A stretch of 52,220 nt of DNA from a virus (IMGVR_UViG_3300045988_100671), one strand, 5' to 3'; shown: positions 7,503 to 28,591, counted from the first letter of the stretch. Numbers and translations: made by a program. The notes: generated by a model from the letters alone, not told the origin.

Positions 7503-7528
7503 GTGGCATTACCGTGGCATTACGGCAT
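7503..7528 (+). repeat. Tandem 11-bp repeat doublet gtggcattacc/gtggcattacg (candidate integrase arm site)
   Basis: gtggcattaccgtggcattacggcat. Overlaps the integrase stop codon (7520-7522). Confidence 0.7.
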
Positions 7529-8572
7529 CAAATCATCGAGTTTTTTGACCGCTTCCGGCACCGTGGAGGGGTATAGATGGCCGTATGTTCGGAGGGTGGT
7601 TTGGACGTCCTCATGGCCCAGGCGCTCGCTCACAAGTAGGACCGGGCAGCCCAGGTGGATGAGGAGCGAGGCGTGGGAGTGCCGGAGATCGTGGAGCCGG
7701 ATGCGCTCCACCCCGGCGGCCTCCGCTGCCTTCAACATCTCCCGGCGGAAGTAATGCTTCGTGAATGGGAACAGCCGGTCATCCGGTCCGACGTCGTAGA
7801 GCGCTGCCATGTACTCCCGCAGCTCTGCCGCCAGCTTCGAGGGCACCGGAACCACCCGGCGGCTCTTTGGCGTCTTCGGCTCCGTGATGACCTCCTCGCC
7901 GTCGATGCTCTGGAAGGACTTCGAGACGGACAGCGTCCCGGCGTCCAGGTCCAGGTCCCTCGGCGTGAGGGCCAGCAGCTCGCCTATCCGCAGGCCGGTC
8001 CAGAACAGCACCGACAGCCCGGTCCGGGCCGGGAGCTTGCGGACCTTCTCATGGACGGCCGTGAACTGCTCGACGGTCCAGAAGTTCATCTCGTCCGCGT
8101 TTTTCTTCCCGACGCCACCGGCCAGGCGGGCCGGATTGACTTGGAGGCCGTAGTAGCGGACGGCGTAGTTGAAGATGGCGCTGATCTGATTGTTGATGGT
8201 CTTGATGTAGGTTGGGGCCAGACCTTCGGCCAGAAGGTCGGACTGCCACTTGCGGACGTGCGCCGGGGTAATCTCGTTGAGCGGCAGTTCCCGGAAGAAC
8301 GGCAGGATCTTCGCATCCACCAGGTACCGCTTGTTCTTGAGAGTGTTCGCCTTGAGGCGGCCCTTCATGTCGTCGAAGTATATCTCGACCATGGACCCGA
8401 AGGCCATGTCGCAGCTCCGGGCCTTCGTTCGGAGAAATTCCTCCTCGAAGGCCTTTGCGTCCTTCTGGCGCAGGAAGCCCCGCTTCTTCTTGAGGCGGCG
8501 GCGCCCCTGCCAGTCCGTGTAGTAAAACGATGCGTACCAGGTGCCCCGTTCCTTGTCTTTGTAGGTGGGCAT
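7520..8572 (-). CDS. int: Tyrosine recombinase / phage integrase
   Basis: Start MPTYKDKERGTWY with RBS gggagg (the track ORF extends 44 codons further upstream). Arm-binding-type N-terminus. C-terminal catalytic region RIRLHDLRHSHASLL...GHEDVQTTLRTYGHLY. Confidence 0.92.
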   Translation of the reverse strand: MPTYKDKERGTWYASFYYTDWQGRRRLKKKRGFLRQKDAKAFEEEFLRTKARSCDMAFGSMVEIYFDDMKGRLKANTLKNKRYLVDAKILPFFRELPLNEITPAHVRKWQSDLLAEGLAPTYIKTINNQISAIFNYAVRYYGLQVNPARLAGGVGKKNADEMNFWTVEQFTAVHEKVRKLPARTGLSVLFWTGLRIGELLALTPRDLDLDAGTLSVSKSFQSIDGEEVITEPKTPKSRRVVPVPSKLAAELREYMAALYDVGPDDRLFPFTKHYFRREMLKAAEAAGVERIRLHDLRHSHASLLIHLGCPVLLVSERLGHEDVQTTLRTYGHLYPSTVPEAVKKLDDLMP

Positions 8573-8576
8573 TTGG

Positions 8577-9050
8577 CTATTCCTCCCTCTCTGGAGGGCG
8601 GTCCCGATTGAAGACGTCCTCCGCCCATTGGTGGAAGACCTGATAACCGGGCAGCTCTGGCGAACCTTCTTCCGGTACATCCGGGAGGGTACATCCAGAG
8701 CCATATTTGGTCCTATGTGCCGGGATTGTGATTAGGCATAAAGGGGGCCGGTGGTTCTTCCTAACGTGGTCAATGTAAAATTTCGCATCCGACAGAGATA
8801 GGCACTTGCCGGAAACTTTGGAGCATAGCTCGCACGGCTCTACGCCAGCAGCCGGAACAAATCGGACTGTCCCGACATCGTAATCTCCCCACCGTTCCAT
8901 TGGAACCTTCATCAACTCATCGAACGACAACGGCTTTCTTTGCTGGTATGTATCTTGCATTTCTTTGATTTTTCCAGACAGCTCACTGTCGTTCATTTCG
9001 TTCAGGTCCTTCCCGAGGATAGAACGCAGAATCTTTTTCATTTCCAGCAA
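8577..9050 (-). CDS. Hypothetical protein (lower-GC gene in lysogeny module)
   Basis: ORF 8577-9092. The likely start is TTG 9050, 8 nt after gggag; ATG 9041 is an alternative. No recognisable domain. The 5' two-thirds is visibly AT-richer than the genome. Confidence 0.55.
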   Translation of the reverse strand: MLEMKKILRSILGKDLNEMNDSELSGKIKEMQDTYQQRKPLSFDELMKVPMERWGDYDVGTVRFVPAAGVEPCELCSKVSGKCLSLSDAKFYIDHVRKNHRPPLCLITIPAHRTKYGSGCTLPDVPEEGSPELPGYQVFHQWAEDVFNRDRPPEREE

Positions 9051-9155
9051 AATGGTCACTCCCTTCTCAAGTATGTGTAAATCATGCCACACGCGGCCCA
9101 GGAGCGCCCAGGAGCGCGTTTCCTGGCCCTATGAATATACCGGGACCCCTGGAGC

Positions 9156-9431
9156 CTAACGCGGCTCCGAGGGGCAAATACGGGCCTCTGCCCGCAAGTG
9201 CCCCGGAACATCCTTCAACCGGACGCCCTCCGACGCCTGGTAGGCTAAGATCAGATCAGCGACACGGGAGCTGGCCTGCGGATCGCCAGCATCGACGGCC
9301 GCCTGGTAGTCCCGCTGGAGATCGGCCAGGTATGCAGCCCTCTCCCTGGCGCAGCGTGGGCACAGCCCGGAGACCAGGTCTGCACAGTTCATAAGGGAGC
9401 CGCAGCTCCGACAGGTCTTGTAGCCAAGCAT
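9156..9431 (-). CDS. Small zinc-ribbon protein (CxxC...CxxC)
   Basis: RBS aggag 8 nt upstream. CRSCGS...CPRC motif. Confidence 0.6.
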   Translation of the reverse strand: MLGYKTCRSCGSLMNCADLVSGLCPRCARERAAYLADLQRDYQAAVDAGDPQASSRVADLILAYQASEGVRLKDVPGHLRAEARICPSEPR

Positions 9432-9525
9432 CTCATTCGCTCCTCTCTCGCGCGCGCGTGCGCGTAGTCACCATGAACATAATAGTTTATATAATACGTT
9501 TATAAGAATACACGTTTATATTATG

Positions 9526-9543
9526 TGGTCAAAAATTAACCGG
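9526..9543 (+). repeat. 18-bp direct repeat tggtcaaaaattaaccgg (iteron-like)
   Basis: Repeated 17/18 at 9585-9602. ACCGGT-type cores also lie at 9539-9544 and 9566-9571. Confidence 0.7.
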
Positions 9544-9584
9544 TAAATATTCCGGTCTATTTTTAACCGGTATTTTCTTCTTTC

Positions 9585-9602
9585 TGGTCAAAAATCAACC
9601 GG
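9585..9602 (+). repeat. 18-bp direct repeat tggtcaaaaatcaaccgg (iteron-like)
   Basis: Partner of 9526-9543, with 59-bp spacing. Confidence 0.7.
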
Positions 9603-9623
9603 AAAGAAAACCGCTTAGATTTC

Positions 9624-9636
9624 GTGGCATTAAAAC
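9624..9636 (+). repeat. gtggcattaaaac motif, copy 1
   Basis: Exact 13-mer also at 21216-21228. Shares gtggcatta with the att-region repeats. Confidence 0.6.
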
Positions 9637-9642
9637 CACACA

Positions 9643-9663
9643 ATTTCCACAGAGTTTTCCACA
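9643..9663 (+). promoter_or_regulatory. Two DnaA-box-like 9-mers one helical turn apart
   Basis: atttccaca (9643-9651) and ttttccaca (9655-9663) against the DnaA box consensus TTATNCACA. They lie next to an AT-rich stretch. Confidence 0.35.
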
Positions 9664-9691
9664 TCCTATCTGGGTCGGAAGTCCACCCAGA

Positions 9692-10075
9692 TCACCCGGC
9701 CCTCCCGGCGGAGGACCCGGCTGCCTCGCTGCCCCCTTTGACCTCGCTGGAGACTGGCGAGGTCATCTCCTGGAGGCGGCCGAGCAAGAGCAGCTGCTCA
9801 CGCTCCGGTAGCTGCTCATAGAGCTCCAGCATCTCGCGCCCGTTCTCGGACATCCCGGGGGCGGGCGCTTTTTCTGTTTCCTGGCCGGTGAGCAGGTACT
9901 CCAGGGAGCAGCCCAGATATTCACAAATGGGGACTATATACTTCGCAGGTGGGTCAGTGTTTCTCAACTTCCAGTTGGAAGTGGTGCTGGTTCCGAGGCC
10001 AAGAGCCTGGCAAAGCCCGTAAGCTGTTAGGCCCCTCTTATCAAGTTCATCAAACATTCTCTCGCCTATTGTCAT
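9692..10075 (-). CDS. XRE-family HTH repressor (cI-like)
   Basis: RBS ggaggtgg. HTH LTAYGLCQALGLGTSTTSNWKLRN. Divergent from the early operon. Confidence 0.85.
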   Translation of the reverse strand: MTIGERMFDELDKRGLTAYGLCQALGLGTSTTSNWKLRNTDPPAKYIVPICEYLGCSLEYLLTGQETEKAPAPGMSENGREMLELYEQLPEREQLLLLGRLQEMTSPVSSEVKGGSEAAGSSAGRAG

Positions 10076-10107
10076 TAGACCACCTCCAAGTGGTATACAG
10101 AATACCC

Positions 10108-10128
10108 AAAAAGTTAGGTAAACTTTTT
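10108..10128. promoter_or_regulatory. Inverted repeat aaaaagtt-N5-aacttttt upstream of the early promoter (operator or UP-element-like)
   Basis: 8-bp arms with a 5-bp spacer, 22 nt upstream of the -35. A similar element lies at 28661-28678. Confidence 0.4.
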
Positions 10129-10150
10129 CTTCGTTTGTGTGCTAAAACGC

Positions 10151-10179
10151 TTGCAATTAGTCCCAAGGTGAAGTATAAT
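10151..10179 (+). promoter_or_regulatory. Early (PR-like) sigma-A promoter
   Basis: TTGCAA (10151-10156), 17-nt spacer, TATAAT (10174-10179). Faces the early operon. Confidence 0.7.
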
Positions 10180-10184
10180 ATAAT

Positions 10185-10202
10185 CAAGCCAAAGGAATAA
10201 GG
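10185..10202 (+). repeat. 18-nt direct repeat caagccaaaggaataagg, copy 1
   Basis: Exact copy at 12602-12619. Confidence 0.8.
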
Positions 10203-10574
10203 TAAAACCCCAAAGCAAACGGCCCGAGGCACCGGGCCGGAGGATAAAACAGGAAGCGGCAGTGAAAGCCGGGTCGTAAGCGGGCATCGCCCGGGGCTCG
10301 ATCGGCAGGCGGTAACGGCGGTACGAACGGCAACCTCCGGCCCACCAATCAGAAACCCAAACATCCCCGACAACTGAACACCGCCTGGGACGGCTCAAGA
10401 AGAAGCTGGGAGAGAGAGCCGCTAAGATGCTACCCGATCAAGCCAAGCATACCAGGTCGAAAGCAGAAATGGGCTGGAACCGTAAATTCGGGGGACCCAG
10501 ATGAGCCGTGGAAGCCGGACGAGTACGCAGAGGATGAACGGAAGTTACCGCATAAGTGAGAGCGGGAGGGGATC

Positions 10575-10590
10575 GCCGGGTGCAACCGGC
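10575..10590 (+). promoter_or_regulatory. GUGCAA-loop stem-loop, copy A
   Basis: gccgg-gtgcaa-ccggc, 17 nt upstream of ATG 10608. Confidence 0.6.
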
Positions 10591-10607
10591 AGAAAGGAAA
10601 GCTGACT

Positions 10608-11162
10608 ATGGATACAAACATGACCACCAAAGGCCAGGAGCGCGAAGCTCTGGCGAAGATCAGGGCGATCGTTGAGGCCCTGGGTCAGGACAGCTACATC
10701 GGAACCGCCCTGGAAGGGTGCCTGGAGATCGCCGAGGAGAACATCGAGAACGACTTCGCTTGCTCCATGAAGCAGCGGGTGGAGGCGTCGGTGGTCGAGA
10801 ACTCCAGACTGAAAGAGAAGATCGCGGAGCTGGAGAGCAAGCTCGCCGAGAGCGAAAAGGACTACGAGGTAGCACACGAGGCCGCGCTCCTGATGGCGGA
10901 GGAGAAGAACGCCGAGATCGCCCGCCTCCAGTCCATGGTCATCTCCCCTGACGACATGACGGATATTAAGCAGCTCGTGAAGGACCGGATGGCCGAGGAT
11001 GAGATGAAGGCCACCCAGGCCGCCGCCGAGATCGTCGAGCACGCCGAAGCCCCTGCATCCAACGAGTTCCAGAATGCCGTGAGGATGCACCGGGCGTACA
11101 TCGCATCTGTCGATTACACCAAGAGCTTGATGGACCGGCTCCAGAAGGCTTCCACCAACTAA
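10608..11162 (+). CDS. Hypothetical coiled-coil protein
   Basis: 184-aa ORF, first gene of the early operon, with a coiled-coil-like acidic sequence. Confidence 0.7.
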   Translation: MDTNMTTKGQEREALAKIRAIVEALGQDSYIGTALEGCLEIAEENIENDFACSMKQRVEASVVENSRLKEKIAELESKLAESEKDYEVAHEAALLMAEEKNAEIARLQSMVISPDDMTDIKQLVKDRMAEDEMKATQAAAEIVEHAEAPASNEFQNAVRMHRAYIASVDYTKSLMDRLQKASTN

Positions 11163-11172
11163 CTCGTTACCT

Positions 11173-11198
11173 CCCGCCCCCGGTGCAACGGGGGCGGG
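11173..11198 (+). promoter_or_regulatory. GUGCAA-loop stem-loop, copy B
   Basis: cccgcccccg-gtgcaa-cgggggcggg (10-bp stem), intergenic. Followed by gaaaggagataactaaccATG. Confidence 0.65.
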
Positions 11199-11219
11199 GA
11201 AGAAAGGAGATAACTAACC

Positions 11220-11498
11220 ATGAACATCCCCGACATCAAGGCAATCCGCCGATGGTCCGACGATTCCGTCCAGGCTGCTTGCATCAAGAACAACCTCTAT
11301 ACCCGCGGCACCTACGATCAGTACGACAAGATGCTCAAGAGTGCGGACGTGCTCCAGCCCACCGTCGAGAACCTGTACCGGCTGGCCAAGGACATCAAGG
11401 AGCACAGCGAGGACCAGACGATCACCAACGTCATGTTCATCCTGGAGCGCGAGGCCGTCACCACCACATTCGAGATCGACGGCAGCGACGAGATTTGA
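11220..11498 (+). CDS. Hypothetical protein
   Basis: RBS aaaggag. 92 aa. Confidence 0.7.
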   Translation: MNIPDIKAIRRWSDDSVQAACIKNNLYTRGTYDQYDKMLKSADVLQPTVENLYRLAKDIKEHSEDQTITNVMFILEREAVTTTFEIDGSDEI

Positions 11499-11510
11499 GG
11501 AGGTGCGAGC

Positions 11511-11642
11511 ATGAGCTACATGGGCATGAACATCCTGGAGTACATCGACTGGCTGATGGACCAGGGCATGAGCGAGGAAGACGCCGAGCGCGAGGCCTCC
11601 GCAGCCTTCGGCCTCTATGAGGAGGAGGACAGCGGATTATGA
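11511..11642 (+). CDS. Small hypothetical protein (43 aa, not in ORF track)
   Basis: RBS gaggagg 6 nt upstream of ATG 11511. Product MSYMGMNILEYIDWLMDQGMSEEDAEREASAAFGLYEEEDSGL. The stop overlaps the next start (ATGA). Confidence 0.55.
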   Translation: MSYMGMNILEYIDWLMDQGMSEEDAEREASAAFGLYEEEDSGL

Positions 11643-11875
11643 GAGATTGGAGAAGCCTCACCCCGGAGGAGCGCAAGGCGGAACGGGACAAGGTCCCCGG
11701 AGAGTACGCCAGAAAGCAGCGCATGGACGCCAACCTGGCTGCGACGCTGGACCTGCTCAAGGATGACCAGTTCGCCCAGGCAAAAGCCTGGAAGGTGTCC
11801 CGGGGCAGCTACCTCATCAACACCCCGGAGGAGATCGCCGCCCACTGCCGGGCGGCGGCCCACGGGAAGGACTGA
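11639..11875 (+). CDS. Hypothetical protein
   Basis: 78 aa, translationally coupled to the upstream small ORF. Confidence 0.65.
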   Translation: MRDWRSLTPEERKAERDKVPGEYARKQRMDANLAATLDLLKDDQFAQAKAWKVSRGSYLINTPEEIAAHCRAAAHGKD

Positions 11876-11877
11876 AC

Positions 11878-11895
11878 CCGCCGGTGCAACGGCGG
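11878..11895 (+). promoter_or_regulatory. GUGCAA-loop stem-loop, copy C
   Basis: ccgccg-gtgcaa-cggcgg, intergenic. Followed by ccaaatgcgaaaggagctaaccATG. Confidence 0.65.
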
Positions 11896-11917
11896 CCAAA
11901 TGCGAAAGGAGCTAACC

Positions 11918-12367
11918 ATGAAATTCCTCGAAACCAGAACCGAGATCGCCAAGGCGATCAACTTCAAGCAGTACCCAATCATCCGCATCGACGTAAGCAA
12001 GACCGACGACTACGGGATCGTCGGCACCCACGTCCTCATCGACAACGGAACCTTCCGCACCGGCGAGCCCTACTTCGTCAGGGCCACCATCCGGGCCTTC
12101 CGCGACGAGGGCTACTTGAAGTTCAAGAGCTACGGCTCCTGCCTGCACGCCGACTTCACCTACTTCGACATGGAGAAGATGCTCGACTACGCCAACGTCC
12201 CCGTCGTCAAGCCTGACCAGGAAATCCTGGTGTGCCTGGTGGACAGCGTGAAGCGCCTGGTCTACAAGCCGGTGGTGCTCAAGACCGGCGATCGGGTGGA
12301 CCCGCACTGTCAGACCCCCTTGACCCTGGAGAAATTCATGGTCCCTGGTATGGAGGCTGGAGCATGA
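11918..12367 (+). CDS. Hypothetical protein
   Basis: ATG 11918, 6 nt after aaaggag. The track ORF opens at 11900. Confidence 0.7.
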   Translation: MKFLETRTEIAKAINFKQYPIIRIDVSKTDDYGIVGTHVLIDNGTFRTGEPYFVRATIRAFRDEGYLKFKSYGSCLHADFTYFDMEKMLDYANVPVVKPDQEILVCLVDSVKRLVYKPVVLKTGDRVDPHCQTPLTLEKFMVPGMEAGA

Positions 12368-12576
12368 GCACGATGACCCTCTGGCTCAAAGGCCGAGACA
12401 GTTGGGACCGCCCGGTCTATATGGACACGACCGGGCGGCTCCTGGTGGACGTAGACCCCAGGAAGAACCGGGAGCCGGACATCTGCACCAAGCAGGGGAA
12501 CGACTTCGACGGAGAGCCGTGCGACCCGGTGCAGGCGGACTTCATCTTCCTACCGTATCGAGACACCTGGTATTAG
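12364..12576 (+). CDS. Hypothetical protein
   Basis: ATG 12364 overlaps the previous stop (ATGA). 70 aa. Confidence 0.6.
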   Translation: MSTMTLWLKGRDSWDRPVYMDTTGRLLVDVDPRKNREPDICTKQGNDFDGEPCDPVQADFIFLPYRDTWY

Positions 12577-12601
12577 TATAGCACACAACAAGCCAAAAGC
12601 A

Positions 12602-12619
12602 CAAGCCAAAGGAATAAGG
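12602..12619 (+). repeat. 18-nt direct repeat caagccaaaggaataagg, copy 2
   Basis: Exact copy of 10185-10202. Here it supplies the RBS of the HTH gene. Confidence 0.8.
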
Positions 12620-12629
12620 AGTGATTACC

Positions 12630-12851
12630 ATGAGGACTACCCGAGTAAAGCCCAAGACCGACTTCGGCATCGAAGTCCGGGTCTTCACGGCACAGACCGG
12701 AATGACCGTGAAAGAGCTGGCGGAGCGGTCCGGTGTCAAATACACCACCCTGGTCGAGACCACGACCGGCCGGTGCGCCGGGCACCAGCTCATCCCCACC
12801 GTCCGCAAGTTCATGCAGGACTACACGGAACGCATGAGAATGGAGGCGTGA
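12630..12851 (+). CDS. Small HTH DNA-binding protein (Cro-like candidate)
   Basis: aaggag 9 nt upstream of ATG 12630. HTH TGMTVKELAERSGVKYTTLVE. Confidence 0.7.
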   Translation: MRTTRVKPKTDFGIEVRVFTAQTGMTVKELAERSGVKYTTLVETTTGRCAGHQLIPTVRKFMQDYTERMRMEA

Positions 12852-12853
12852 GT

Positions 12854-13054
12854 ATGGCGAAGGTTAAGACTGCACGCGATCTGTTCTACCGCGTCGATGA
12901 TGTGATGCGGCTGCTGGGCTACTCCCGCAGCAAGAGCTACAAGATCATCGCCCAGCTCAACCGGGAGCTGGAGGCCGCCGGGTTCTGCACCTGCGACGGC
13001 CGGGTGAGCCGCCGGTACTTCGATAAGCGCTACGGCCTGGAGGCCATGGCGTAA
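12854..13054 (+). CDS. Excisionase/MerR-type HTH protein (putative Xis or regulator)
   Basis: ggagg upstream of ATG 12854. VDDVMRLLGYSRSKSYKIIAQLNREL...GRVSRRYFDKRYGL resembles excisionase-family DNA-binding domains. Confidence 0.6.
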   Translation: MAKVKTARDLFYRVDDVMRLLGYSRSKSYKIIAQLNRELEAAGFCTCDGRVSRRYFDKRYGLEAMA

Positions 13055-13064
13055 GGAGGGCATC

Positions 13065-13433
13065 ATGGAGACGAAAGAACTGACCATCAAGATCAAGCCC
13101 GAGGAGAGGGCGAAGGCCAAGCGGAAGGCCTGGGAGCTCAAGGTGTACGCGAGAATGTCTGTCCTGGCCCTGGCCGCTATGGCAACGGCAAGGCTGGTGC
13201 TGCTGACCATCGACATCGTCCAGCTTCGCGCCGGTACCGTCGGCGGAGAAATCTGCATCCCGGCCTATGCCGCGATCTTCATCTACACCGGCTGGAAGCT
13301 CAAGAGCTGGACGGCTGGAACCAGAAAGGGGAAACGAGAATGTACTACCACGAATGCGACCGCTGCGGGAGCCGCCTGGACCCGGGAGAGGTTTGCGACT
13401 GCGCCCAGCAAGAGAACCAAGCGCGGCGCGTGA
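13065..13433 (+). CDS. Membrane protein (two TM helices)
   Basis: 122-aa ORF. The 3' 94 nt overlap the next gene, so the true end or function is uncertain. Confidence 0.5.
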   Translation: METKELTIKIKPEERAKAKRKAWELKVYARMSVLALAAMATARLVLLTIDIVQLRAGTVGGEICIPAYAAIFIYTGWKLKSWTAGTRKGKRECTTTNATAAGAAWTRERFATAPSKRTKRGA

Positions 13434-13717
13434 GCATGGCCGACTGGAGCGCGGTCGGAGACTTTGAGAAGGCTGCGAAGCCTGGGGACCTGGTGGACGA
13501 GGAGATCGTCGAGGAGTTCGTCAACTGCCTCCCGCCGACCACGCTGCGCGGCGATCTGGTCCAGGCTGGTGAGCCCTATTCCCACCAGTACGACCCGGAG
13601 GCAGACCGATGGAGGGCTACCTACACCACCTTTGCGAAGGTGGATGGAGAGTGGACCTACTGCGGCAAGTGCTTCGTAGGCAAGACCAAGGAGCCCAAGG
13701 GGCTCCCCAAAGCGTAA
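13340..13717 (+). CDS. Hypothetical protein with N-terminal zinc ribbon
   Basis: MYYHECDRCGSRLDPGEVCDC, with a second C..C pair near the C-terminus. RBS aaagggga. Confidence 0.6.
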   Translation: MYYHECDRCGSRLDPGEVCDCAQQENQARRVSMADWSAVGDFEKAAKPGDLVDEEIVEEFVNCLPPTTLRGDLVQAGEPYSHQYDPEADRWRATYTTFAKVDGEWTYCGKCFVGKTKEPKGLPKA

Positions 13718-13719
13718 AG

Positions 13720-13735
13720 AGCGGGTGCAACCGCT
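13720..13735 (+). promoter_or_regulatory. GUGCAA-loop stem-loop, copy D
   Basis: agcgg-gtgcaa-ccgct, intergenic. Followed by accagacgaaaggagataactgactATG. Confidence 0.65.
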
Positions 13736-13760
13736 ACCAGACGAAAGGAGATAACTGACT

Positions 13761-14867
13761 ATGTACCGCTACTACATCACCCGTAAGACGCCGGAGGGCG
13801 TCATGGAGTACCCCACCACCACCGCACCGAACGTCATCGAGAGCTACGGCCAGAACGGTTCGCAGTTCGAGGGATTCACCGAGCGCTTCTGGGGGTACGT
13901 CGAGTTCGAGCAGGAGCTCCCCGGGAGTGACCTGGACGCCTACGGCCTGGTCCCCGGCCCGTCCCCCGAGTACCACCCCATCAACGAGAACATGGCCCGC
14001 CGGGCCAAGGAGATGATGAGCTTCAGCGAGTATGTCCCTGGGTCCGCGACCTGGGACTACCGCCTCCAGGTGGACAAGGCCTCCATGGTGGCCCAGCGTC
14101 AGAAGCAGCGCACGGACCCCATGTACCATGAGAAGATCGACGGCCTGCTGGCTTCCTATTCCCGCCGCCTGGCTGCCAACCTGAACGACGGGTACCGCAT
14201 CGGTACGATGTGCCCATCGGTGCTGATCTCCGGCGGAAGCAACTTCCCGGTACGCAAGAAGGAGCGCCAGAACGCGGCGTCTGATAAGAACATGGCGGAG
14301 TGGCAGGAGATCAACGGCATCATCGGCCGCATCAAGTCCGTCGGAACGGGCGGCATCTCGTCCGATGACCCCCTGGCCCTGGATAAGCTCAAGCTCAAGC
14401 TGCGGAAGCTGGAGGAGCTCCAGGAGGAGATGAAGGCAGCCAACGCGGCTATCCGCATGAAGAACAAGGAAGCGGGCGACGCGAAGCTCGCCGAGCTCGG
14501 CTACACCGAGGAGGAGATCGCAAAGCTCCGGGCACCCGACTTCTGCGGCCGCATCGGCTACCCGGCCTATCAGCTCCAGAACAACAACGCGAACATCCGG
14601 CGAATCCGCCAGCGGATCGCCGAGCTGGAGAAGAAGAAGGAGAACCCGGCCGAGGGCTGGGAGTTTGACGGCGGGAAGGTCGTCGTGAACCAGGGCGTCA
14701 ACCGTCTCCAGATCATCTTCGATGACCGGCCGGATGCTGATCTGCGGTCGGAGCTCAAGGGCGAGGGCTTCCGGTGGGCGCCGTCGCAGGGAGCGTGGCA
14801 GCGTCAGCTTACCGACAACGCCATGCGGGCGGCTCGCCGCATCAAGGCGATTGCCCCGGCCGAGTGA
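13761..14867 (+). CDS. DUF3560-like protein
   Basis: The C-terminal RLQIIFDDRPDADLRSELKGEGFRWAPSQGAWQRQLTDNA matches the DUF3560 signature as I recall it. Central coiled coil. Confidence 0.65.
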   Translation: MYRYYITRKTPEGVMEYPTTTAPNVIESYGQNGSQFEGFTERFWGYVEFEQELPGSDLDAYGLVPGPSPEYHPINENMARRAKEMMSFSEYVPGSATWDYRLQVDKASMVAQRQKQRTDPMYHEKIDGLLASYSRRLAANLNDGYRIGTMCPSVLISGGSNFPVRKKERQNAASDKNMAEWQEINGIIGRIKSVGTGGISSDDPLALDKLKLKLRKLEELQEEMKAANAAIRMKNKEAGDAKLAELGYTEEEIAKLRAPDFCGRIGYPAYQLQNNNANIRRIRQRIAELEKKKENPAEGWEFDGGKVVVNQGVNRLQIIFDDRPDADLRSELKGEGFRWAPSQGAWQRQLTDNAMRAARRIKAIAPAE

Positions 14868-14915
14868 GTTCCCCCTCTACCATCCCCATTATACCCAGAA
14901 AGGAGGAGGAACAGC

Positions 14916-15416
14916 GTGTCAACCACAACGAAAAAAAGGCCCCTCGAATTTCTTCGAGAGGCACGAATAGCGGCTGGATATGTCAGCCGTGGAACGGCGT
15001 CAACTGCGGTCCCGTTTTCACCCGAGACAATCGGGCGGCATGAGCGCGGAGACATCGAGATGGAGCCGGAGGACGCCGTAACCTACGCGGAGAGCTACAA
15101 GCGGCCGGAGGTGCTGCTCCACTACTGCGCGACTTGTCCGGTCGGAAGGAAGCTGGGAAAGGAAGCGCGGGAGCTGGAGCTCCCGCACGCCACCCTGCGA
15201 ATCCGTCGGCTCATCGCAGATGGACAGGATGTAGCCGACCGCCTGGAGGAGATCGCCTTTGACGGCGTCATTGACGACAGCGAGCGCGTTGAGTTCGCGG
15301 ACGCCCTCAAGTTCCTCCGGCAACTGGAGCAATCCATCATGGACATCATACTCATAGGCCTGGAAAATGGGAAGGCCGCCCCCGGTGCAACGGGAAGCGG
15401 CCAAATGCGGAAATAA
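14916..15416 (+). CDS. HTH (XRE-like) regulator
   Basis: GTG start after aaaggaggagg. N-terminal HTH-like LREARIAAGYVSRGTAS...ETIGRHERG. The 3' end runs across hairpin copy E. Confidence 0.6.
   Translation: MSTTTKKRPLEFLREARIAAGYVSRGTASTAVPFSPETIGRHERGDIEMEPEDAVTYAESYKRPEVLLHYCATCPVGRKLGKEARELELPHATLRIRRLIADGQDVADRLEEIAFDGVIDDSERVEFADALKFLRQLEQSIMDIILIGLENGKAAPGATGSGQMRK
15381..15394 (+). promoter_or_regulatory. GUGCAA-loop stem-loop, copy E (degenerate module inside a CDS 3' end)
   Basis: cccg-gtgcaa-cggg with an outer ggccgc/gcggcc pairing. Followed by ccaaatgcggaaataactaacc, as in copy C but without GGAG or an ATG. Confidence 0.5.
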
Positions 15417-15475
15417 CTAACCGCCATCATAGTACCATACTCCCGGCCGCCTGTCAAGCGAAAGGAGTTTTATCA

Positions 15476-16528
15476 ATGGCATACGACATCGTTCAGCTCA
15501 ACAAGTACCCGAAGGACAGGTACAACGTCCTGGTCCCTGTCACCACCATGCAGGCGGCGTCCAACCTCCAGCGGATCACCGTCTCCGAGGTGCTGCTCGA
15601 CACCCGGCAGGACAGCAGCAACAAGGGGCCGAGCAAGGACATCTACTTCGAGAAGTCCAGCAGCGCCTTTGCCATCACGAAGGTCGGCGGGATGAAGCTG
15701 GCCGCAGCGGCCAACATCTCCATCGTCGGAACCGAGCCAGGCCGAACCGAAGGGTGCCAGCGCTGCATCGAGATGGCCCGGGCGACCGGACAGCCCCGTG
15801 TGTGCGGGAACTGCCCGCACGTCCACGACGTAGCCGTCACCGTAACCATCCGCGTGCCGGAGCCCTCTGGGGGCTTCCGGCTGATGCAGGCCACCAAGGA
15901 GATCGACTGTACCCTGGAAGCGGCCAGCATGAAGGACGGAGCCAACGGGCAGCAGTTTCGCCGGTTCCTGCCTCACCGGACCGCGATGGCAGAGAGCAAG
16001 GCCTTCATGCGAGCCATCCGCGCCGCCCTGGGCCTGGCTGGCACCTATCCCCTGGAGGAGCTGAAAAAGCCCTTCGTCGTGGCCCGCATGGTCCCGAACC
16101 TGGACGCACCGGAGATCAAGCAGGCCGTCGCCCAGAACTACTTGCAGTCCATGGGGATGCTGTTCGAGGCACCGGCGGCCGGACATCGCCAGATCGAGCC
16201 CCCCAAGGCCGTCGAGACCGTAGAGGCCTATGAGGATGAGGCCCAGGGCGCGGCGCCGTGGGAGGAGCCGCCGGAGGAGCCGGACACCTGGAGCTCGAAC
16301 CCCAGCTACGGACCGGCCGACTACGATGACCGCACGCCCCCGCAGCGCCCCGCGATCGGGGCACCGGAGCCGATCATCTGCTCGCGCTGCCGCCAGGAGA
16401 TCACCGGCGGCACATCCCGGAAAGGCCGGGCGTGGACGCCGCAGGATGTGGCCGCGTACAGCCAGCGCACCTTCGGGCGCGTGCTCTGCCCCGCCTGCCA
16501 GGACATTGAAAAGGGGGCTCGGAGATGA
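15476..16528 (+). CDS. Putative single-strand annealing / recombination protein (Rad52/ERF-like) with zinc-ribbon inserts
   Basis: RBS aaaggag. AESKAFMRAIRAALGLAG resembles the Rad52/ERF SSAP signature. CxxC pairs present. Sits upstream of the SbcCD-like gene. Assignment is tentative. Confidence 0.4.
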   Translation: MAYDIVQLNKYPKDRYNVLVPVTTMQAASNLQRITVSEVLLDTRQDSSNKGPSKDIYFEKSSSAFAITKVGGMKLAAAANISIVGTEPGRTEGCQRCIEMARATGQPRVCGNCPHVHDVAVTVTIRVPEPSGGFRLMQATKEIDCTLEAASMKDGANGQQFRRFLPHRTAMAESKAFMRAIRAALGLAGTYPLEELKKPFVVARMVPNLDAPEIKQAVAQNYLQSMGMLFEAPAAGHRQIEPPKAVETVEAYEDEAQGAAPWEEPPEEPDTWSSNPSYGPADYDDRTPPQRPAIGAPEPIICSRCRQEITGGTSRKGRAWTPQDVAAYSQRTFGRVLCPACQDIEKGARR

Positions 16529-16665
16529 CGGTAATTGAGTTTGCAGCCAAACGGCTGGAAGAAGAAAGCGGATACGACACTGACGCTGTCCGCTACTGGG
16601 CCGCCTACCTGGACGGGGCCAGGGCGCAGAAGAAAGAGGACGAGGAGGCGAAGGTCAATGATTAA
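16525..16665 (+). CDS. Small hypothetical protein (46 aa, not in ORF track)
   Basis: ATG 16525 overlaps the upstream stop and its TAA overlaps ATG 16658. Product MTVIEFAAKRLEEESGYDTDAVRYWAAYLDGARAQKKEDEEAKVND. Confidence 0.45.
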   Translation: MTVIEFAAKRLEEESGYDTDAVRYWAAYLDGARAQKKEDEEAKVND

Positions 16666-19600
16666 GATTCTGCATACCGGAGACATTCACCTCGGGGACC
16701 TGGCCGGTCCCACCAAGGACGGCCAGAACCTTCGCAGGGAAGACACCATCAGGTGTATGCGGGAGGTCTACTACCGGGCCTTCCTGGAGGAACCCGATGT
16801 GACCATCATCGCGGGAGACCTGTTCAACCGGTCCCGCGTCTGGGCGGACACCGCCCTGGAGGACGTCAACGACGCCCTGGAGCAGTTCATCATCCCGCTG
16901 TGCAAGTGCAGCGACGCCGTGGTGCTGCTGTTTGGCACCATGAACCACGACAACCCCAGGGCCTTCGAGCTCATCAAGAGAGCCACCCAGGACCTCAAGA
17001 ACCTGCATATCTACACGGAGCCGAAGGTGGAGGAGATCACCACCAGCAGCGGACCGGTCCAGATCGTAGCGGTCCCCGGCTTCGACAAGGCCCGCCTCCG
17101 CCTGTTCTGCCCCGGGGTGGACAAGGAGACGGAGAACCGGAACGCTACGGCGCTTATCAACGACATCATGCTGGGCCTGTCCACGGAGCTGGACAAGTCG
17201 AAGCCGTCCGTCCTGGTGGCTCACTACACGGTCAGCGGAAGCGAGGCGGACAACGGCTCCACCTTCCTGGCGGGCCAGGACGTCGTAGTGCTTCCGGCTA
17301 CCATCGACGCCATGGGTGTGGACCTCGCCTGCTTCGGGCACATCCACAAGCCGCAGCGGCTTGTGTGTCAGACACCGGCCTTCTATTGTGGTTCTGTCAA
17401 TCAGCTCACCTTCAACGACGAGGGGACGGAGCACGGCTTTTACATTCACACTATCGACGGGCAGGTCTCCAGCGAGTTCGCTGTGACGCCGGAGCGGAAG
17501 CACTTCACCCTGCGCCTGTCGCCGGAGGACGTCTCCGCCTTCATCACCGGCGGAGTGGCGCCGACGCCGGACGGGATCTCTGATGCCGTTGTTCGGGTCC
17601 GGTATTCCTGTACCGCCGAACAGGACAAGGCCTTCAACCGGGCAGAGCTCCAAAAGTACCTGATGCAGGCTGGAGCCTTCTACGTCGCCGAGGTTATGCC
17701 GGAGGACGTGGAGGAGCTGGACGCCAAGGACCAGCTCACGGAGCACGATGGACCGGCCGAGTGTCTGGCCCGCTGGCTGGAGACCAACGGCGTGGAGCCG
17801 GACAAGGCCGCCAGACTTGAGGAGTTGGCCGCTCCGATCATCAAGCAGGCGGACGACGGGCGCGGAGACAGCAAGCATACCGGAGCGTTTTTCCCGCGCT
17901 CCATCGAGGTCAAGAACTACCGCAGCTACACGGCAGCGACCTTCGACTTCGAGCCGGTTCACATGGCGATGGTCAACGGCCCGAACGGCGTAGGTAAGTC
18001 CAGTCTGTTCATGGACGCCCTGGCCGATTGCCTGTACGAGCAGACCCGCAAGGAGGACATCGGCGGATGGGTCCGGGACGGCACCAAGAGCGGCAGCATC
18101 ACCTTCACCTTCGGCCTGGGCGGCCAGGACTACCGGGTCATCCGCACCAGAACCAAGAGCGGGCGAGGAACCCTGGCGCTCCAGCGCTGGGACGCGGACG
18201 GCCAGGCCTGGGCCGATGAAAGCGACACCACCATGAAGCTCACCCAGGCCCGCATCGAGCGGCTTCTCGGAATGGACTGCACGACCTTCTGCTCCATCGC
18301 ACTTATCCGGCAGGACGCCTACGGGCTTTTCCTGGAAGCCGGAAGCGATCAGCGCATGGCCGTTCTGTCTGCCCTCCTGGGCCTGGACATCTACGGCCGG
18401 ATGGAGGACCTGGCGAAGGCCGGGGCCACGGAGCAGCGCCGGAAGCTGGCGGCCATCCGGGAGCGCAGCGCCATCCTCGATGAGACTATCCAGCAGAAGG
18501 CGGGCATCGAGAGCGAAGACGCCGAGCTTGCCGATCAGGTGGCCGACGTCGAGAAGTTCGTCAAGGACCTGGAGGCGGACCTCCGTGAGGCAGAGGCGGC
18601 CGAGGCCCTACGCAAGGAGATCGCCCGGCAGGCCGAGGAGAAGAAGCGGCAGGCCCAGGAGTACCGCCTCCAGGCGGCCGACAAGGCCTCCGAATACCTG
18701 GACCTGGAGAAGAAGCACTCCGAGGCAGAGGCGGCCGCTGACGGCCTGGAGGATGCAGCCAGGGCAGCGGATAAGGTCAAGGCGGCCAGGGAGATCATGC
18801 AGCAGCACGCCCCTGATGTCGAGAGGGACAAGGACCTGGTCAAGGACCGGGCCCGCGCCACAAGTGACCTGGCGACCTCTGATGAGAAGGCGCAGCACCT
18901 TGCGAGTGAAAAGGCCCGCAACGAGGCCATCCTCTCCAAGAAGGATGAAATCGTTCGTGCGAAGAACGAACTGGCGGAGATCGTCACCAAGAAGGAGACG
19001 ATTCGCCAGCGCCTCGCAGAGCTGGAGAAGGCTACCGCAGCATATCAGGAGGCAAAGGCGGCCTGTGATAGATACCTCCAGGAGGCCAAGTCGGACATCC
19101 GGGCCTGCGAGGCTGAAATCCAGCGGGCGACCGATGAAACCGCGAGACTGGATGACAGCGGGTGCCTGGTGCCGGACACCGCGACCTGCAAGTTCCTGGC
19201 CTCTGCTGTGGAATCCAAGCGAGCGCTACCCGGAATGATGGAGGAGCTTGAGACCAAGAAGGCGAAGTACCGCGAGCGCTATGATGAGCTCAAGGCGGCC
19301 GTCGATCAGGCAAAGGCCGCCATTGATGAGATCGGAGACCCCCTCGGCGCTTTGGAAGACCTGGAGTACAAGGAGCGGCGCCTCCGTTCCATCGCCTCGA
19401 AGGAGGCGGACATCGCGGTTGCGGAAGCTACCCTGGAGAAAATCGAGGCGTCCGTCCTGGAAGTGAAACAGACCTTCGATGCAGCGGCGGCCCGCATCGA
19501 CGAGATCGACGCTGAGCGCGTGAAGCTCGCCCAGGCCGTTACCGCCTACCAGGAGGCCGAGGGAGACGTGAAGGCCTTTTCCGTTTTGGCTGATACTCTG

Positions 19601-20437
19601 GCGGAGTGTCAGGCGGCCGCAGCGAAGGCCGAGGCCCTGGAGCCGCAGATCAGGAAGCTCAAGGCGGAAGTGGAGGAGCTGCGCGGCAAGTCCGAGCAGG
19701 CACTTCGAGAGGCCGACGAGATCGCCGCCCGCGTGCCGGGAGGTGGGAACGTGGCAGACCGCATCCGCGCCAACATCGAAGCGCAGCGACGGTCCCTCAC
19801 CGACCTGGCAACCCGCCGGGGACAGCTCAAGGCAAAGCTGGAGGACATCGCAGAGGCGGAGACCAAGTCCTCGGAGCTCCGCCGGGAGGCGGAAGCCGTC
19901 GGCGTGGTCTTGAGCGACTACACCACCCTGGCCCAGGCATTTGGCCTGGACGGCATCCAGTACATGATCGTGCGCGGCGTCGTGCCGGAGATCATGCGCC
20001 GGTCCAATGAAATTCTGGCAGCCATGACCGGCGGCCGTATGGCGGTGGACATCCGAACCGAGCGGGAGCAGAAGTCCACGAAGCAGATCGTGAACAGCCT
20101 GGAGGTGTGGATTAACACCATCACGGGAGGCAACAGACCCTACCTCTCCCACAGCGGAGGCGAGAAGGTCAAGATCGCGCTGGCTGTCACCCTGGGCCTG
20201 GCTGACGTGAAAGCTCGCCGGGCGGGGGTGCAGCTTGGGATGCTGTTCATCGACGAGCCCCCCTTCCTGGACGCCGACGGAACCGAGGCCTACGCCGACG
20301 CCCTGGCCGCCATGGCCTCCAGAAACCCCAATATGAGAATCCTTGCTATCTCGCACGACCCGACCATGAAGGCCCGGTTTGTGCAGAACATCGTGGTAAC
20401 CGGCGGAGAGGACGGGAGCACAGTCACGATGGAATAA
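16658..20437 (+). CDS. Fused SbcD/Mre11-like nuclease and SbcC/Rad50-like ATPase
   Basis: ATG 16658 after gaggagg. Phosphoesterase motifs ILHTGDIHLG, GDLFN, GTMNHD, GHIHKP. Walker A GPNGVGKSS. Long coiled coil. Signature LSHSGGEKV and Walker B MLFIDEP. Confidence 0.88.
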   Translation: MIKILHTGDIHLGDLAGPTKDGQNLRREDTIRCMREVYYRAFLEEPDVTIIAGDLFNRSRVWADTALEDVNDALEQFIIPLCKCSDAVVLLFGTMNHDNPRAFELIKRATQDLKNLHIYTEPKVEEITTSSGPVQIVAVPGFDKARLRLFCPGVDKETENRNATALINDIMLGLSTELDKSKPSVLVAHYTVSGSEADNGSTFLAGQDVVVLPATIDAMGVDLACFGHIHKPQRLVCQTPAFYCGSVNQLTFNDEGTEHGFYIHTIDGQVSSEFAVTPERKHFTLRLSPEDVSAFITGGVAPTPDGISDAVVRVRYSCTAEQDKAFNRAELQKYLMQAGAFYVAEVMPEDVEELDAKDQLTEHDGPAECLARWLETNGVEPDKAARLEELAAPIIKQADDGRGDSKHTGAFFPRSIEVKNYRSYTAATFDFEPVHMAMVNGPNGVGKSSLFMDALADCLYEQTRKEDIGGWVRDGTKSGSITFTFGLGGQDYRVIRTRTKSGRGTLALQRWDADGQAWADESDTTMKLTQARIERLLGMDCTTFCSIALIRQDAYGLFLEAGSDQRMAVLSALLGLDIYGRMEDLAKAGATEQRRKLAAIRERSAILDETIQQKAGIESEDAELADQVADVEKFVKDLEADLREAEAAEALRKEIARQAEEKKRQAQEYRLQAADKASEYLDLEKKHSEAEAAADGLEDAARAADKVKAAREIMQQHAPDVERDKDLVKDRARATSDLATSDEKAQHLASEKARNEAILSKKDEIVRAKNELAEIVTKKETIRQRLAELEKATAAYQEAKAACDRYLQEAKSDIRACEAEIQRATDETARLDDSGCLVPDTATCKFLASAVESKRALPGMMEELETKKAKYRERYDELKAAVDQAKAAIDEIGDPLGALEDLEYKERRLRSIASKEADIAVAEATLEKIEASVLEVKQTFDAAAARIDEIDAERVKLAQAVTAYQEAEGDVKAFSVLADTLAECQAAAAKAEALEPQIRKLKAEVEELRGKSEQALREADEIAARVPGGGNVADRIRANIEAQRRSLTDLATRRGQLKAKLEDIAEAETKSSELRREAEAVGVVLSDYTTLAQAFGLDGIQYMIVRGVVPEIMRRSNEILAAMTGGRMAVDIRTEREQKSTKQIVNSLEVWINTITGGNRPYLSHSGGEKVKIALAVTLGLADVKARRAGVQLGMLFIDEPPFLDADGTEAYADALAAMASRNPNMRILAISHDPTMKARFVQNIVVTGGEDGSTVTME

Positions 20438-26926: not shown

Positions 26927-27177
26927 GCGCCCGCCGGGAGAAGCGTCTCCGCTCTTTGGAGCGCCGTGTGCAGAAACTTGAGGTCATGGCTTCGGCCGGA
27001 TTCCTGGAATCTAACCTGCGGGAGGAGCTGGCAAAGGCCAACAACCGGCCGGAGAACGCCTGGTGGTGCAGGACCCCGACCGACAACATCCCGCAGGATG
27101 CGGAGTACCAGCAGGTCCCGCGCCGGACCGTCCGGCAGCGGATCAAGGATTTTTTCATGGGAGGTAATCAGAAATGA
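26923..27177 (+). CDS. Hypothetical protein
   Basis: ATG 26923 overlaps the upstream stop, with ggaggg 6 nt upstream. 84 aa. Confidence 0.55.
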   Translation: MSARREKRLRSLERRVQKLEVMASAGFLESNLREELAKANNRPENAWWCRTPTDNIPQDAEYQQVPRRTVRQRIKDFFMGGNQK

Positions 27178-27641
27178 AACAGTACATCGGAACCAAGCTG
27201 ATCGAGGCGGAGCCCGCCTACCGCTGCACGGACGGCAGCGGGAAGGTCGTCATTACCCCTCACCCGGAGGAGGCTTTCCCCAACTATCCCAGCATCGAGG
27301 ACGGCTACCGCGTCCGGTACCCGGACGGGTATGTCTCCTGGAGCCCGAAGGCGGTCTTCGAGGAGGCGTATCGGCCTACCACAGGTATGAGCTTTGGTCT
27401 GGCGATCGAAGCTGCGAAGAAGGGGCACCGTATTTCGAGAGCTGGATGGAATGGGAAGGGGCAGTACGTCGAGATTGCCGCCGGAATCAGCTACGTCGGG
27501 CCGGATGGCGAGATCGTCAACGCGGAGCATGACGCCATCGGAAACAGAGCTTTGGCCTTTGTTGGCACATCCGGCGTCCAGATGGGGTGGCTTGCCTCTC
27601 AGGCGGATATGCTGGCGGACGACTGGACCATCGTTTCGTGA
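27174..27641 (+). CDS. DUF2829-domain protein (Tad2-family candidate)
   Basis: MSFGLAIEAAKKGHRISRAGWNGKG ... WLASQADMLADDWTIV matches the DUF2829 signature. N-terminal extension with GYRVRYPDGYVSWSPKAVFEEAY. Confidence 0.75.
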   Translation: MKQYIGTKLIEAEPAYRCTDGSGKVVITPHPEEAFPNYPSIEDGYRVRYPDGYVSWSPKAVFEEAYRPTTGMSFGLAIEAAKKGHRISRAGWNGKGQYVEIAAGISYVGPDGEIVNAEHDAIGNRALAFVGTSGVQMGWLASQADMLADDWTIVS

Positions 27642-28015: not shown

Positions 28016-28522
28016 ATGGGAAATCGAAAGGAACTTGAGGACATTATCAAACTGGCGGTAGAGGCTGGCCGTATCTCTGCGGAGCGGTCTGCCAAAGACG
28101 CCTACAAGGCCACGGAGCGCCGCCTCTATGCGCTCCCCATCCTTCGACGCAAACTGGCCGATGACAAGGAGCGTCTGGAGGAGATCAGACAGTACGGCCC
28201 CAGAGAGCGGAGCAAGAGCATTACCCGCTTCACGAAGTCTGGCGTGCGCCTGTCGCCCGAGGAAATCTTTGAGGCGGTTATCATGGACATGGAGGCCACC
28301 ATCGCGGCCGATCAGTATGAGATCGACGCCATGGACAAGGCCCTGTCCGTCATCCGGGACGACGAATACTATCTGACCGTGACCGGGAGATACCTGGATG
28401 ACCTCCCCGATGAGCGCGTCGCAGAGCTCATTCCTTGCGATACGAGCACCGTTTGGAGGAACCGGAAGCGCCTGGTGCAGCGCCTTGCGGTGTGGCTCTA
28501 CGGGGCCGACGCCACGAAGTAG
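28016..28522 (+). CDS. RinA / sigma-70-region-4-like transcriptional activator (putative late regulator)
   Basis: ATG 28016 after ggaggagg. ERRLYALPILRRKLADDKERLEEI and the C-terminal HTH VAELIPCDTSTVWRNRKRLVQRLA resemble RinA/ArpU-type regulators. Confidence 0.6.
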   Translation: MGNRKELEDIIKLAVEAGRISAERSAKDAYKATERRLYALPILRRKLADDKERLEEIRQYGPRERSKSITRFTKSGVRLSPEEIFEAVIMDMEATIAADQYEIDAMDKALSVIRDDEYYLTVTGRYLDDLPDERVAELIPCDTSTVWRNRKRLVQRLAVWLYGADATK

Positions 28523-28525
28523 GCG

Positions 28526-28591
28526 GGGTGCAATTTACCGGTGCAAAAATCGTGCAATAGACGGGTGCAATTTACCTGTGTTATAATGCAA
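28526..28591 (+). promoter_or_regulatory. Cluster of GTGCAA boxes, including a 14-bp direct repeat gggtgcaatttacc
   Basis: gtgcaa at 28528, 28541, 28552 and 28565, plus atgcaa at 28586. gggtgcaatttacc occurs at 28526-28539 and 28563-28576. An extended -10 tgttataat lies at 28579-28587. Confidence 0.6.

Follow-up and report, generated by a model that had tools for sequence, protein, structure and literature searches.

Five GUGCAA-loop hairpins in the early operon of a temperate gut phage and a predicted antisense RNA that may pair with them

The window analysed here is the whole 52,220-nucleotide (nt) viral sequence IMGVR_UViG_3300045988_100671, which represents a temperate phage with a G+C content of about 60%. 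Its plus strand carries five hairpins with the hexaloop GTGCAA, named A to E from left to right. Copies A–D each lie between a stop codon and the Shine-Dalgarno (SD) sequence of the next gene, and copy E lies within the last codons of a helix-turn-helix (HTH) regulator gene. The explanation that we favour, with a probability of about 0.6, is a predicted antisense-RNA regulon that would repress translation of early gene blocks by loop-loop kissing combined with SD pairing. Copy E is most likely the terminator hairpin of the regulator, a conserved small RNA, about 60 nt in length, whose transcription would converge with that of the early operon, and the evidence points to an RNA rather than a protein as the partner of the A–D hairpins. 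The promoter of this RNA, its hairpin, the strand on which the hairpin folds, the complementarity to the targets, the bias in wobble pairs and the distribution over lineages are all observed in silico.

The proposed mechanism starts from an antisense RNA of about 60 nt (15422→about 15362), which would be transcribed from the minus strand by a near-consensus sigma-A-type promoter and ended by the hairpin of copy E. Copies A–D would be reverse-complement paralogues of the small-RNA gene, embedded in the early polycistronic mRNA. Pairing would be nucleated by a six-base kiss between the GUGCAA hexaloop, carried on a stem of any sequence, and the UUGCAC loop of the small RNA, after which the 5' tail GGUUAGUUAUUUCC would pair across the SD/spacer sequence GGAGAUAACUAACC. 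With the SD covered, translation of the first gene in each of four early blocks would be blocked; gene 28762 is possibly repressed too, and the longer duplexes at B and C may be substrates of RNase III. The small RNA would also be cis-antisense to the 3' end of the HTH regulator gene. As its promoter looks constitutive, it may in lysogens silence leaky or incoming early transcripts and so form a second layer of immunity, and strong convergent early transcription may outcompete it, or interfere with it, during lytic growth. Production of the RNA, its binding, translational repression, the sign of the effect and the biological role are what we infer from the features described below.

All five hairpins are perfect on the plus strand and lie at exactly the coordinates given in an earlier sequence-only reading of the window; RNA folding recovers every one of them. 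The 8-mer GGTGCAAC occurs five times, always on the plus strand and within 10579-15391 (4.8 kb). Its rarity had been stressed, and the five plus-strand copies within 5 kb are indeed present, but the count by itself is only modestly unusual (expectation on both strands 1.57 ± 1.25, with at least five copies in 2 of 100 shuffles). The hexamer GTGCAA is not enriched overall (19 observed versus 19.5 expected). It is the hairpin context that stands out, not the hexamer count, since among 290 perfect hexaloop hairpins of the plus strand (stem of at least 4 base pairs, bp) five share the loop GTGCAA and every other loop is found three times at most. The 19 occurrences of GTGCAA are distributed as 18 on the plus strand and one on the minus strand, and this skew persists (9 versus 1) when the nine copies in the hairpins and in a promoter array are excluded.

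About 200 IMG/VR loci of related phages were gathered, with three proteins (primase-like, regulator and late regulator) and DNA patterns as anchors. Among Flavonifractor-type relatives the stems covary, as compensatory change would require. The 14 distinct stems taken from the window and related phages give a covariation score of 0.555, compared with 0.138 ± 0.045 in shuffles (0 of 500 reach 0.555) and ≤0.227 in slid controls, and double-change cells number 21 versus 9.4 ± 2.2, figures to be read with the caveat that stem selection itself demanded pairing at the three innermost pairs. The closing G-C pair and the third pair, C-G, are invariant across the 14 stems, and the loop GTGCAA shows no variation within the window's clade. 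Imperfect hairpins of the A–D type contain G·U pairs on the plus strand in three independent cases. The covarying stems and the plus-strand G·U pairs together argue that A–D are hairpins of the mRNA, and they uphold the initial preference for a folded single strand over a duplex protein site.

The hairpins belong to larger modules (Table 1), each composed of the hairpin, a short spacer, GAAAGGAG and nTAACnnACC. The module is kept whole while the genes on either side differ between phages, with breakpoints at the stop codon on one side and at the ATG on the other. A conserved initiation region had been described downstream of A–D; it is found in exact form, as GAAAGGAGATAACTRAC, at B and D, and the stem end is separated from GAAAGG by 1-8 nt instead of the 5-15 nt proposed. 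A 16-mer common to C and E was confirmed. Relatives L006 and L322 have a counterpart of module C with the compensated stem CGCCGG/CCGGCG. The sequences directly 3' of A, B, C and D are AGAAAGG, GAAGAAAGG, CCAAAUGC and ACCAGACG, respectively; none of them contains a U-tract and none was called by the terminator scan. The reported lack of U-tracts is thus correct for the plus strand, but E has a U-rich tract on the minus strand. Similarity between B and C (11214-11238 and 11912-11936) runs past the ATG into the first six codons, at 80% over 25 nt.

Two other identities for the modules were examined. Promoters or promoter-spacer elements were rejected, as A–D lack a −35/−10 pair with constant spacing and their loops stand anywhere from 6 to 14 nt away from the SD. 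Integron attC sites are 57-141 nt long, have paired R/L core boxes and extrahelical bases, and occur with an integron integrase; the present hairpins are 14-29 nt long with perfect stems, and the only recombinase found is an ordinary phage integrase.

Copy E had been taken for a degenerate module, but it is the most widely conserved of the five and a larger, two-tier hairpin. On the minus strand to the right of E, every lineage has TTGACA, exactly 17 variable nt, usually TG, and TAnnnT; GGTTAG or GGTTAT stands at the expected start point and is followed by the hairpin and, in every lineage, by a U-rich tract. In the window, a consensus scan scores this promoter at 10/12 matches with TG. Seventeen distinct lineages keep it, the most remote with 46% identity in the adjoining regulator; column identity is 98% in the −35 box and 57% in the spacer; T1, A2 and T6 of the −10 box are invariant and TG is present in 14 of the 17. 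Spacing and key positions are conserved and the spacer and flanks drift, as expected for an antisense RNA gene with a promoter of its own.

Relatives with as little as 46% identity in the regulator protein likewise have the two-tier hairpin, including those with a shifted reading frame across E and a changed loop, and 91.4% of the cells of its alignment are paired. In the 12 lineages compared it contains 22 G·U pairs when folded on the minus strand versus 2 on the plus strand, and it is more stable on the minus strand in 10 of them (p = 0.005). The small-RNA hairpin, GGCCGCU-U-CCCG[UUGCAC]CGGG-GGCGGCC, gives a predicted fold of −21.7 kcal/mol for the RNA with the 5' tail free. A covariance model built from 13 lineages has exactly one copy in the window, at 15422→15362 (79.7 bits, E = 1.3e-18). 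The conserved minus-strand promoter, the minus-strand folding bias and this single copy are the grounds for reading E as the small-RNA terminator. Rfam 15 gives no match at gathering score in the whole window and none at E ≤ 10 in 15250-15550, and the small RNA belongs to no curated RNA family. To the final ~45 nt and the stop codon of the HTH regulator gene the small RNA is a perfect antisense match, and this gene is its predicted cis target.

Base for base, the small-RNA loop UUGCAC is complementary to the GUGCAA loops of A–D, and the unpaired 5' tail GGUUAGUUAUUUCC is complementary to the SD/spacer GGAGAUAACUAACC of the modules. When about 52,000 positions are ranked for duplexes with the 20-nt tail, the cis site E comes first, B second, D fifth and C sixth. 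Among the trans sites of the window module B is the strongest (−22.2 kcal/mol, z about −4.8), with 14 consecutive tail pairs, one of them G·U. Module D reaches −19.3 to −19.6 kcal/mol, compared with −10.0 for its mirror, through 14 consecutive pairs that include three G·U; module C reaches −19.5 kcal/mol, and module A, the weakest of the four, −12.4 kcal/mol versus −6.1 for its mirror. Duplexes of the whole RNA make C (−81.5 kcal/mol) and B (−79 kcal/mol) the top trans matches over a background of −35 ± 7, but these full-length energies were judged to be inflated by stem-to-stem pairing, and the tail-only and mirror tests were used instead. With each phage's own tail set against its own targets, the real duplex is stronger than the mirror in all 12 distinct pairs (means −18.7 and −13.2 kcal/mol, p = 5e-4). 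This outcome implies that the target-side differences are A-to-G and C-to-U changes, which wobble in the predicted orientation alone. By tail ranks, whole-RNA ranks and the mirror test, the complementarity to the target initiation regions exceeds chance.

The covariance model of the small RNA also finds B (E = 1.6e-5) and C (E = 1.8e-3) as reverse-complement paralogues. The small RNA may have built its own regulon by duplication, through inverted copies of its gene, terminator hairpin included, that came to lie before several early blocks; we give an even chance to this origin taken together with the recognition of four to five mRNAs by one RNA and the portable control outlined at the end.

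A further candidate target has no hairpin. The sequence gggaaauacuaacc, in the leader of the gene at 28762-29247, forms a tail duplex of −20.3 kcal/mol, which ranks third overall and second to B among trans sites, and is a weak match to the covariance model (E about 1). Relatives have GGAAATAACTA, GGAGATAACTAACC-ATG or GGAGTAACTAACC in its place. Just upstream of the gene, at 28698-28746, is a near-consensus promoter-like site, GTGACA-17-TATAAT with TG (11/12), and the leader predicted from it begins with the complement of the small-RNA tail.

In the 80 loci compared, GTGCAA is the commonest gene-strand hexaloop and the sole loop that recurs within a locus, in 3-4 copies that are always on the gene strand. 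The loop of the small RNA varies by lineage (UUGCAC, UUGCUC, UUGCAG, CUGCUA, UGCCAG, CGCCAA, UUGCAAC, UUCCCGG and one 13-nt loop); on the plus strand the E loops of relatives read GAGCAA, CTGCAA, TAGCAG, CTGGCA, TTGGCG, GTTGCAA, CCGGGAA or the 13-nt loop. Intergenic hairpins of the GTGCAA type are confined to lineages whose small-RNA loop is UUGCAC or UUGCUC, and in the UUGCUC lineage the target loop is GGGCAA, so that pairing is kept via one G·U. Lineages with other small-RNA loops have no intergenic hairpins, yet they have tail sites, GGA(G)ATAACTAACC-ATG, at early genes. The spacer common to E and the C-type module changes jointly, being CCAAATGCG in the window, CCAAGTGCAGAAA in L331 and CCAAGTGCGAAA in L137. 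Among relatives without GTGCAA hairpins no alternative loop recurs within a locus, except for unrelated GAAAGA units, and the promoter-plus-tail signature of the small RNA, when scanned for in the viral collection, yielded no further lineages.

Several points weigh against the proposed regulon. Module A pairs weakly with the small-RNA tail, and about ten unrelated sites in the window match the tail-only energy of C and D. Paralogy alone yields complementarity, so selection on pairing is argued only by the bias towards wobble pairs, the constancy of the loop and the spread over lineages; some of the A-to-G changes that give G·U pairs also make a GGAG Shine-Dalgarno, which offers another cause for them. 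The hairpin lineages form one clade, and the association with the small-RNA loop may reflect a single event plus one variant. Complete pairing between two hexaloops is sterically demanding. Lastly, the lineage to which the window belongs has a broken U-tract (UUCCCAUUUUCC), and a simple terminator scan made no call there.

Among the other explanations, the one that comes closest, unlikely as it is, regards the modules as passive: copies of one cassette of hairpin and strong ribosome-binding site (RBS), spread by recombination where gene blocks meet, in which the hairpin would be no more than a generic stabiliser or processing point of mRNA 3' ends, with the antisense RNA acting in cis only. 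Conservation of the module between differing genes, the breakpoints at stop codon and ATG, and the clear paralogy of B and C with the E region all suit such cassettes. A generic stabiliser, however, needs no invariant loop on freely changing stems, neutral paralogues should not give a wobble bias in one orientation in 12/12 pairs, and the hairpins are absent where the small-RNA loop differs, though the RBS tail sites remain. The initial suggestion of recombination linkers is partly right, in that the modules sit at mosaic junctions, but it leaves the invariant loop, the strand-specific wobbles and the lineage restriction unexplained. Next in order, and improbable too, is that a phage or host protein reads the GUGCAA loop, either for antitermination of the boxB/N type or as a translational operator beside the SD. 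In its favour, one unchanging loop is presented on covarying stems of 4-10 bp, and GNGCAA might take a GNRA-like fold. Antitermination lacks an object, because the scan of 9000-16600 found no plus-strand intrinsic terminator within the early operon, and the sole plus-strand terminator-like site of that interval (9836-9868) lies upstream of the early promoter. Nor was a candidate protein found: Pfam, PHROGs and NCBIfam scans of the early genes detected no N-like arginine-rich protein and no Q-like or other RNA-binding family, and the small early open reading frames (ORFs) are acidic or unannotated. These results speak against the boxB-like proposal. A translational operator, also proposed before, accords with the position beside the RBS, but a loop-reading protein would leave unexplained both the opposite-strand folding of E behind its own promoter and the wobble-biased complementarity of the SD/spacer to the small RNA, which indicate an RNA partner.

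The two remaining readings are weaker. That GGTGCAAC is a duplex site for the late activator or another DNA-binding protein, which would act as a stoperator-like roadblock in the early operon, is very unlikely. It draws on four direct GTGCAA repeats at 28.5 kb, directly downstream of the RinA/sigma-like gene and upstream of TGnTATAAT, an array that is itself conserved. This array is conserved wherever the late regulator is at least 70% identical and loosens to NTGCAAWWW in distant phages; its repeats lie between the late-regulator gene and the extended −10 box tgtTATAAT, repeats and box together falling within 28528-28587. In the lineage with the 13-nt loop (contigs 032162, 014857, 041376 and 024244) the GTGCAA x4 array is present, GTGCAA hairpins are absent and the small-RNA loop is different, which means that array and hairpins are not coupled. 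Moreover, the promoter motif allows TTGCAA, ATGCAA and GCGCAA, whereas the hairpin loop is fixed in the window's clade, and the covarying flanks and G·U pairs point to a folded single strand. A stoperator would be expected to have a conserved asymmetric duplex of ~13 bp; here only the 8 bp of GGTGCAAC are invariant, the flanks covary and imperfect copies use G·U on the mRNA strand, which speaks against the stoperator-like sites suggested earlier. A single protein reading both array and hairpin loops was rejected on the strength of the array-only lineage and the looser NTGCAAWWW motif, and the repeats at 28528-28570 are probably a separate feature, the binding sites of a late-promoter activator. 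In relatives, terminator-like hairpins occur between the array promoter and the 28698-28746 site. Least probable of all is that A–D are factor-independent terminators or attenuators without a U-tract: they are GC-rich hairpins directly after stop codons, but no copy has a plus-strand U-tract, stems go down to 3-5 bp, stopping at each block boundary would silence the downstream replication genes, and termination does not need a conserved loop.

The antisense-RNA regulon resembles several known systems in part; nothing relevant on GTGCAA/GUGCAA motifs was found in the literature. The c4 RNA of phages P1 and P7 is processed from a transcript of the same sense as its target and controls one operon (icd/ant). 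The window RNA differs in having its own convergent promoter, in being cis-antisense to a regulator gene and in having four to five dispersed, self-copied trans targets. In the immI region, c4 represses phage genes by pairing around the RBS via loop-exposed sequences, as part of immunity (PMC12197685). The likeness is that of a phage-encoded small RNA with predicted repression by pairing around the RBS with loop-exposed complements; there is no sequence or Rfam relationship between the two, and they are not homologous. RNAIII of Staphylococcus aureus is a 514-nt chromosomal effector of quorum sensing. The RNA predicted here is a phage RNA of ~60 nt, and its target hairpins are paralogues of the regulator's own terminator. 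RNAIII is reported to act on coa (and rot) mRNA by an imperfect SD duplex and a loop-loop contact elsewhere in the mRNA that lead to translation arrest and degradation (PMC2837412), and the bipartite recognition predicted here, an imperfect SD-covering duplex plus a loop-loop contact, is similar.

In gene layout the window RNA is close to P22 sar and lambda OOP, two short antisense RNAs of phages that each have a promoter and a terminator of their own and are convergent to an early or regulatory gene (PMC12197685). Those RNAs address the overlapping cis transcript only, without dispersed trans targets or a kissing hairpin repeated through an operon. With lambda nut/boxB the hairpins share short GC stems, a conserved purine-rich loop and a place in early transcripts; they differ in that there are no terminators to override, no N-like protein, five sites instead of two and one copy that would function on the opposite strand. 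The CI RNA of phage P4 is an immunity RNA that pairs with short repeated complements (seqA/seqC) at several points of the early operon; it is cut from the same transcript, and its pairing leads to premature transcription termination. The sites in the window, unlike those of P4, lie on ribosome-binding sites and no terminators are present. Judged from the sequence, what would set this system apart is that it has several trans targets at scattered places, that these originated as inverted copies of the small-RNA gene and that the terminator hairpin serves as kissing partner.

Table 1. Features of the window and their coordinates.
Feature	Coordinates	Strand	Details
Integrase	7520-8704	−	
CI-type repressor	9692-10075	−	
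Rightward promoter-like site	10151-10179	+	TTGCAA-17-TATAAT
Module A	10575-10607	+	gccgg-GUGCAA-ccggc (10575-10590), SD/spacer agaaaggaaagcugacu, ATG 10608
Module B	11173-11219	+	10-bp GUGCAA-loop hairpin (11173-11198), GAAAGGAGAUAACUAACC, ATG 11220
Module C	11878-11917	+	ccgccg-GUGCAA-cggcgg (11878-11895), ccaaaugcgaaaggagcuaacc, ATG 11918
Module D	13720-13760	+	agcgg-GUGCAA-ccgcu (13720-13735), accagacGAAAGGAGAUAACUGACU, ATG of primase-like gene 13761
Primase-like gene	13761-14867	+	Rightward early operon
HTH regulator gene	14916-15416	+	phrog_6499, E = 9.6e-37; HTH_31 match weak
Copy E, two-tier hairpin	15374-15402	−	Putative small-RNA terminator hairpin; on +, last codons of HTH regulator gene
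Predicted small antisense RNA, ~60 nt	15422→15362	−	5' tail GGUUAGUUAUUUCCGCAUUU, hairpin, then UUCCCAUUUUCC; ends inferred
Small-RNA promoter	15429-15457	−	−35 TTGACA (15457-15452), 17-nt spacer, TG-extended −10 TACTAT (15434-15429)
Fused SbcD/SbcC-like gene	16535-20437	+	Rightward early operon
DnaD-like loader			Rightward early operon
RinA/sigma-like late regulator	28016-28522		Rightward operon
Four direct GTGCAA repeats	28528-28570	+	Starts 28528, 28541, 28552, 28565; spacing 13/11/13 bp
Candidate extra target without hairpin	28733-28746	+	gggaaauacuaacc, leader of gene 28762-29247, adjoins SD

The modules are also present as prophage copies, in Pseudoflavonifractor sp. Marseille-P3106, in one Flavonifractor metagenome-assembled genome and in two 'Clostridiaceae' assemblies. 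GenBank phages include no close relative, only three weak fragments being matched, and searches of the window for tRNA and Rfam families found none. The leader of ~420 nt between the early promoter and the first gene (10186-10607) has no convincing ORF and holds a 7-bp hairpin with the loop AGGCAC at 10220-10239; L006 and L322 have a GTGCAA module and a gene at the equivalent place. An exact 18-nt repeat, CAAGCCAAAGGAATAAGG, is found at 10185-10202, directly after the −10 box of the early promoter, and at 12602-12619, directly before an HTH gene starting at 12630, with a partial copy at 12589-12606; it may serve as another promoter or as a leader element common to the two places. The ORF at 16535-20437 encodes 1300 amino acids that join an SbcD-like phosphoesterase and an SbcC/SMC-like ATPase in one chain, and the ORF at 27174-27641 encodes a Tad2-like (Thoeris anti-defence 2) domain (Pfam PF11195, E = 1.5e-20).

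Distant relatives contain repeated elements of other kinds. Hairpins with a GAAAGA loop occur three or four at a time in L170, L176, L177, L180, L183, L185, L189, L193 and L198 (an example in L198 is at 10994-11702); their stems covary (GCCGG, GCCCG, GTCTG), (A/T)TGACA precedes each, and several are closely 5' of tRNA-like genes. They probably act as promoters or processing elements reiterated through a phage tRNA array. Several other distant phages (L167 438, L172 2983, L175 2598, L188 3204) have in common an inverted repeat, TTGCAC...N18...TTTGTGCAAAA, which looks like an operator whose half-sites are the hexamer GTGCAA of the window's hairpin loops.

Phage regulatory RNAs are known almost solely from E. 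coli, Salmonella and Vibrio models, with nothing comparable reported for phages of the abundant gut Oscillospiraceae. If the antisense-RNA regulon is real, one RNA of ~60 nt would recognise four to five mRNAs by a kiss with mirror-image hairpins plus a 5' seed, and it would be a compact, tractable phage small RNA with several trans targets in its own genome. The target sites would have arisen by copying the regulator gene, with the terminator hairpin doubling as kissing partner. The model makes exact predictions, namely a 60-nt minus-strand RNA starting near 15422 and compensatory mutations of loop and seed, and it would explain a repeat that annotation would call 'intergenic hairpins of unknown function'. 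The cassette of hairpin and RBS would also provide a ready-made orthogonal RNA switch for engineering. Because the modules are placed at mosaic junctions, any gene that arrives there by recombination would automatically gain small-RNA control, and phages of gut Oscillospiraceae would thus possess a portable, RNA-based immunity or early-gene throttle.

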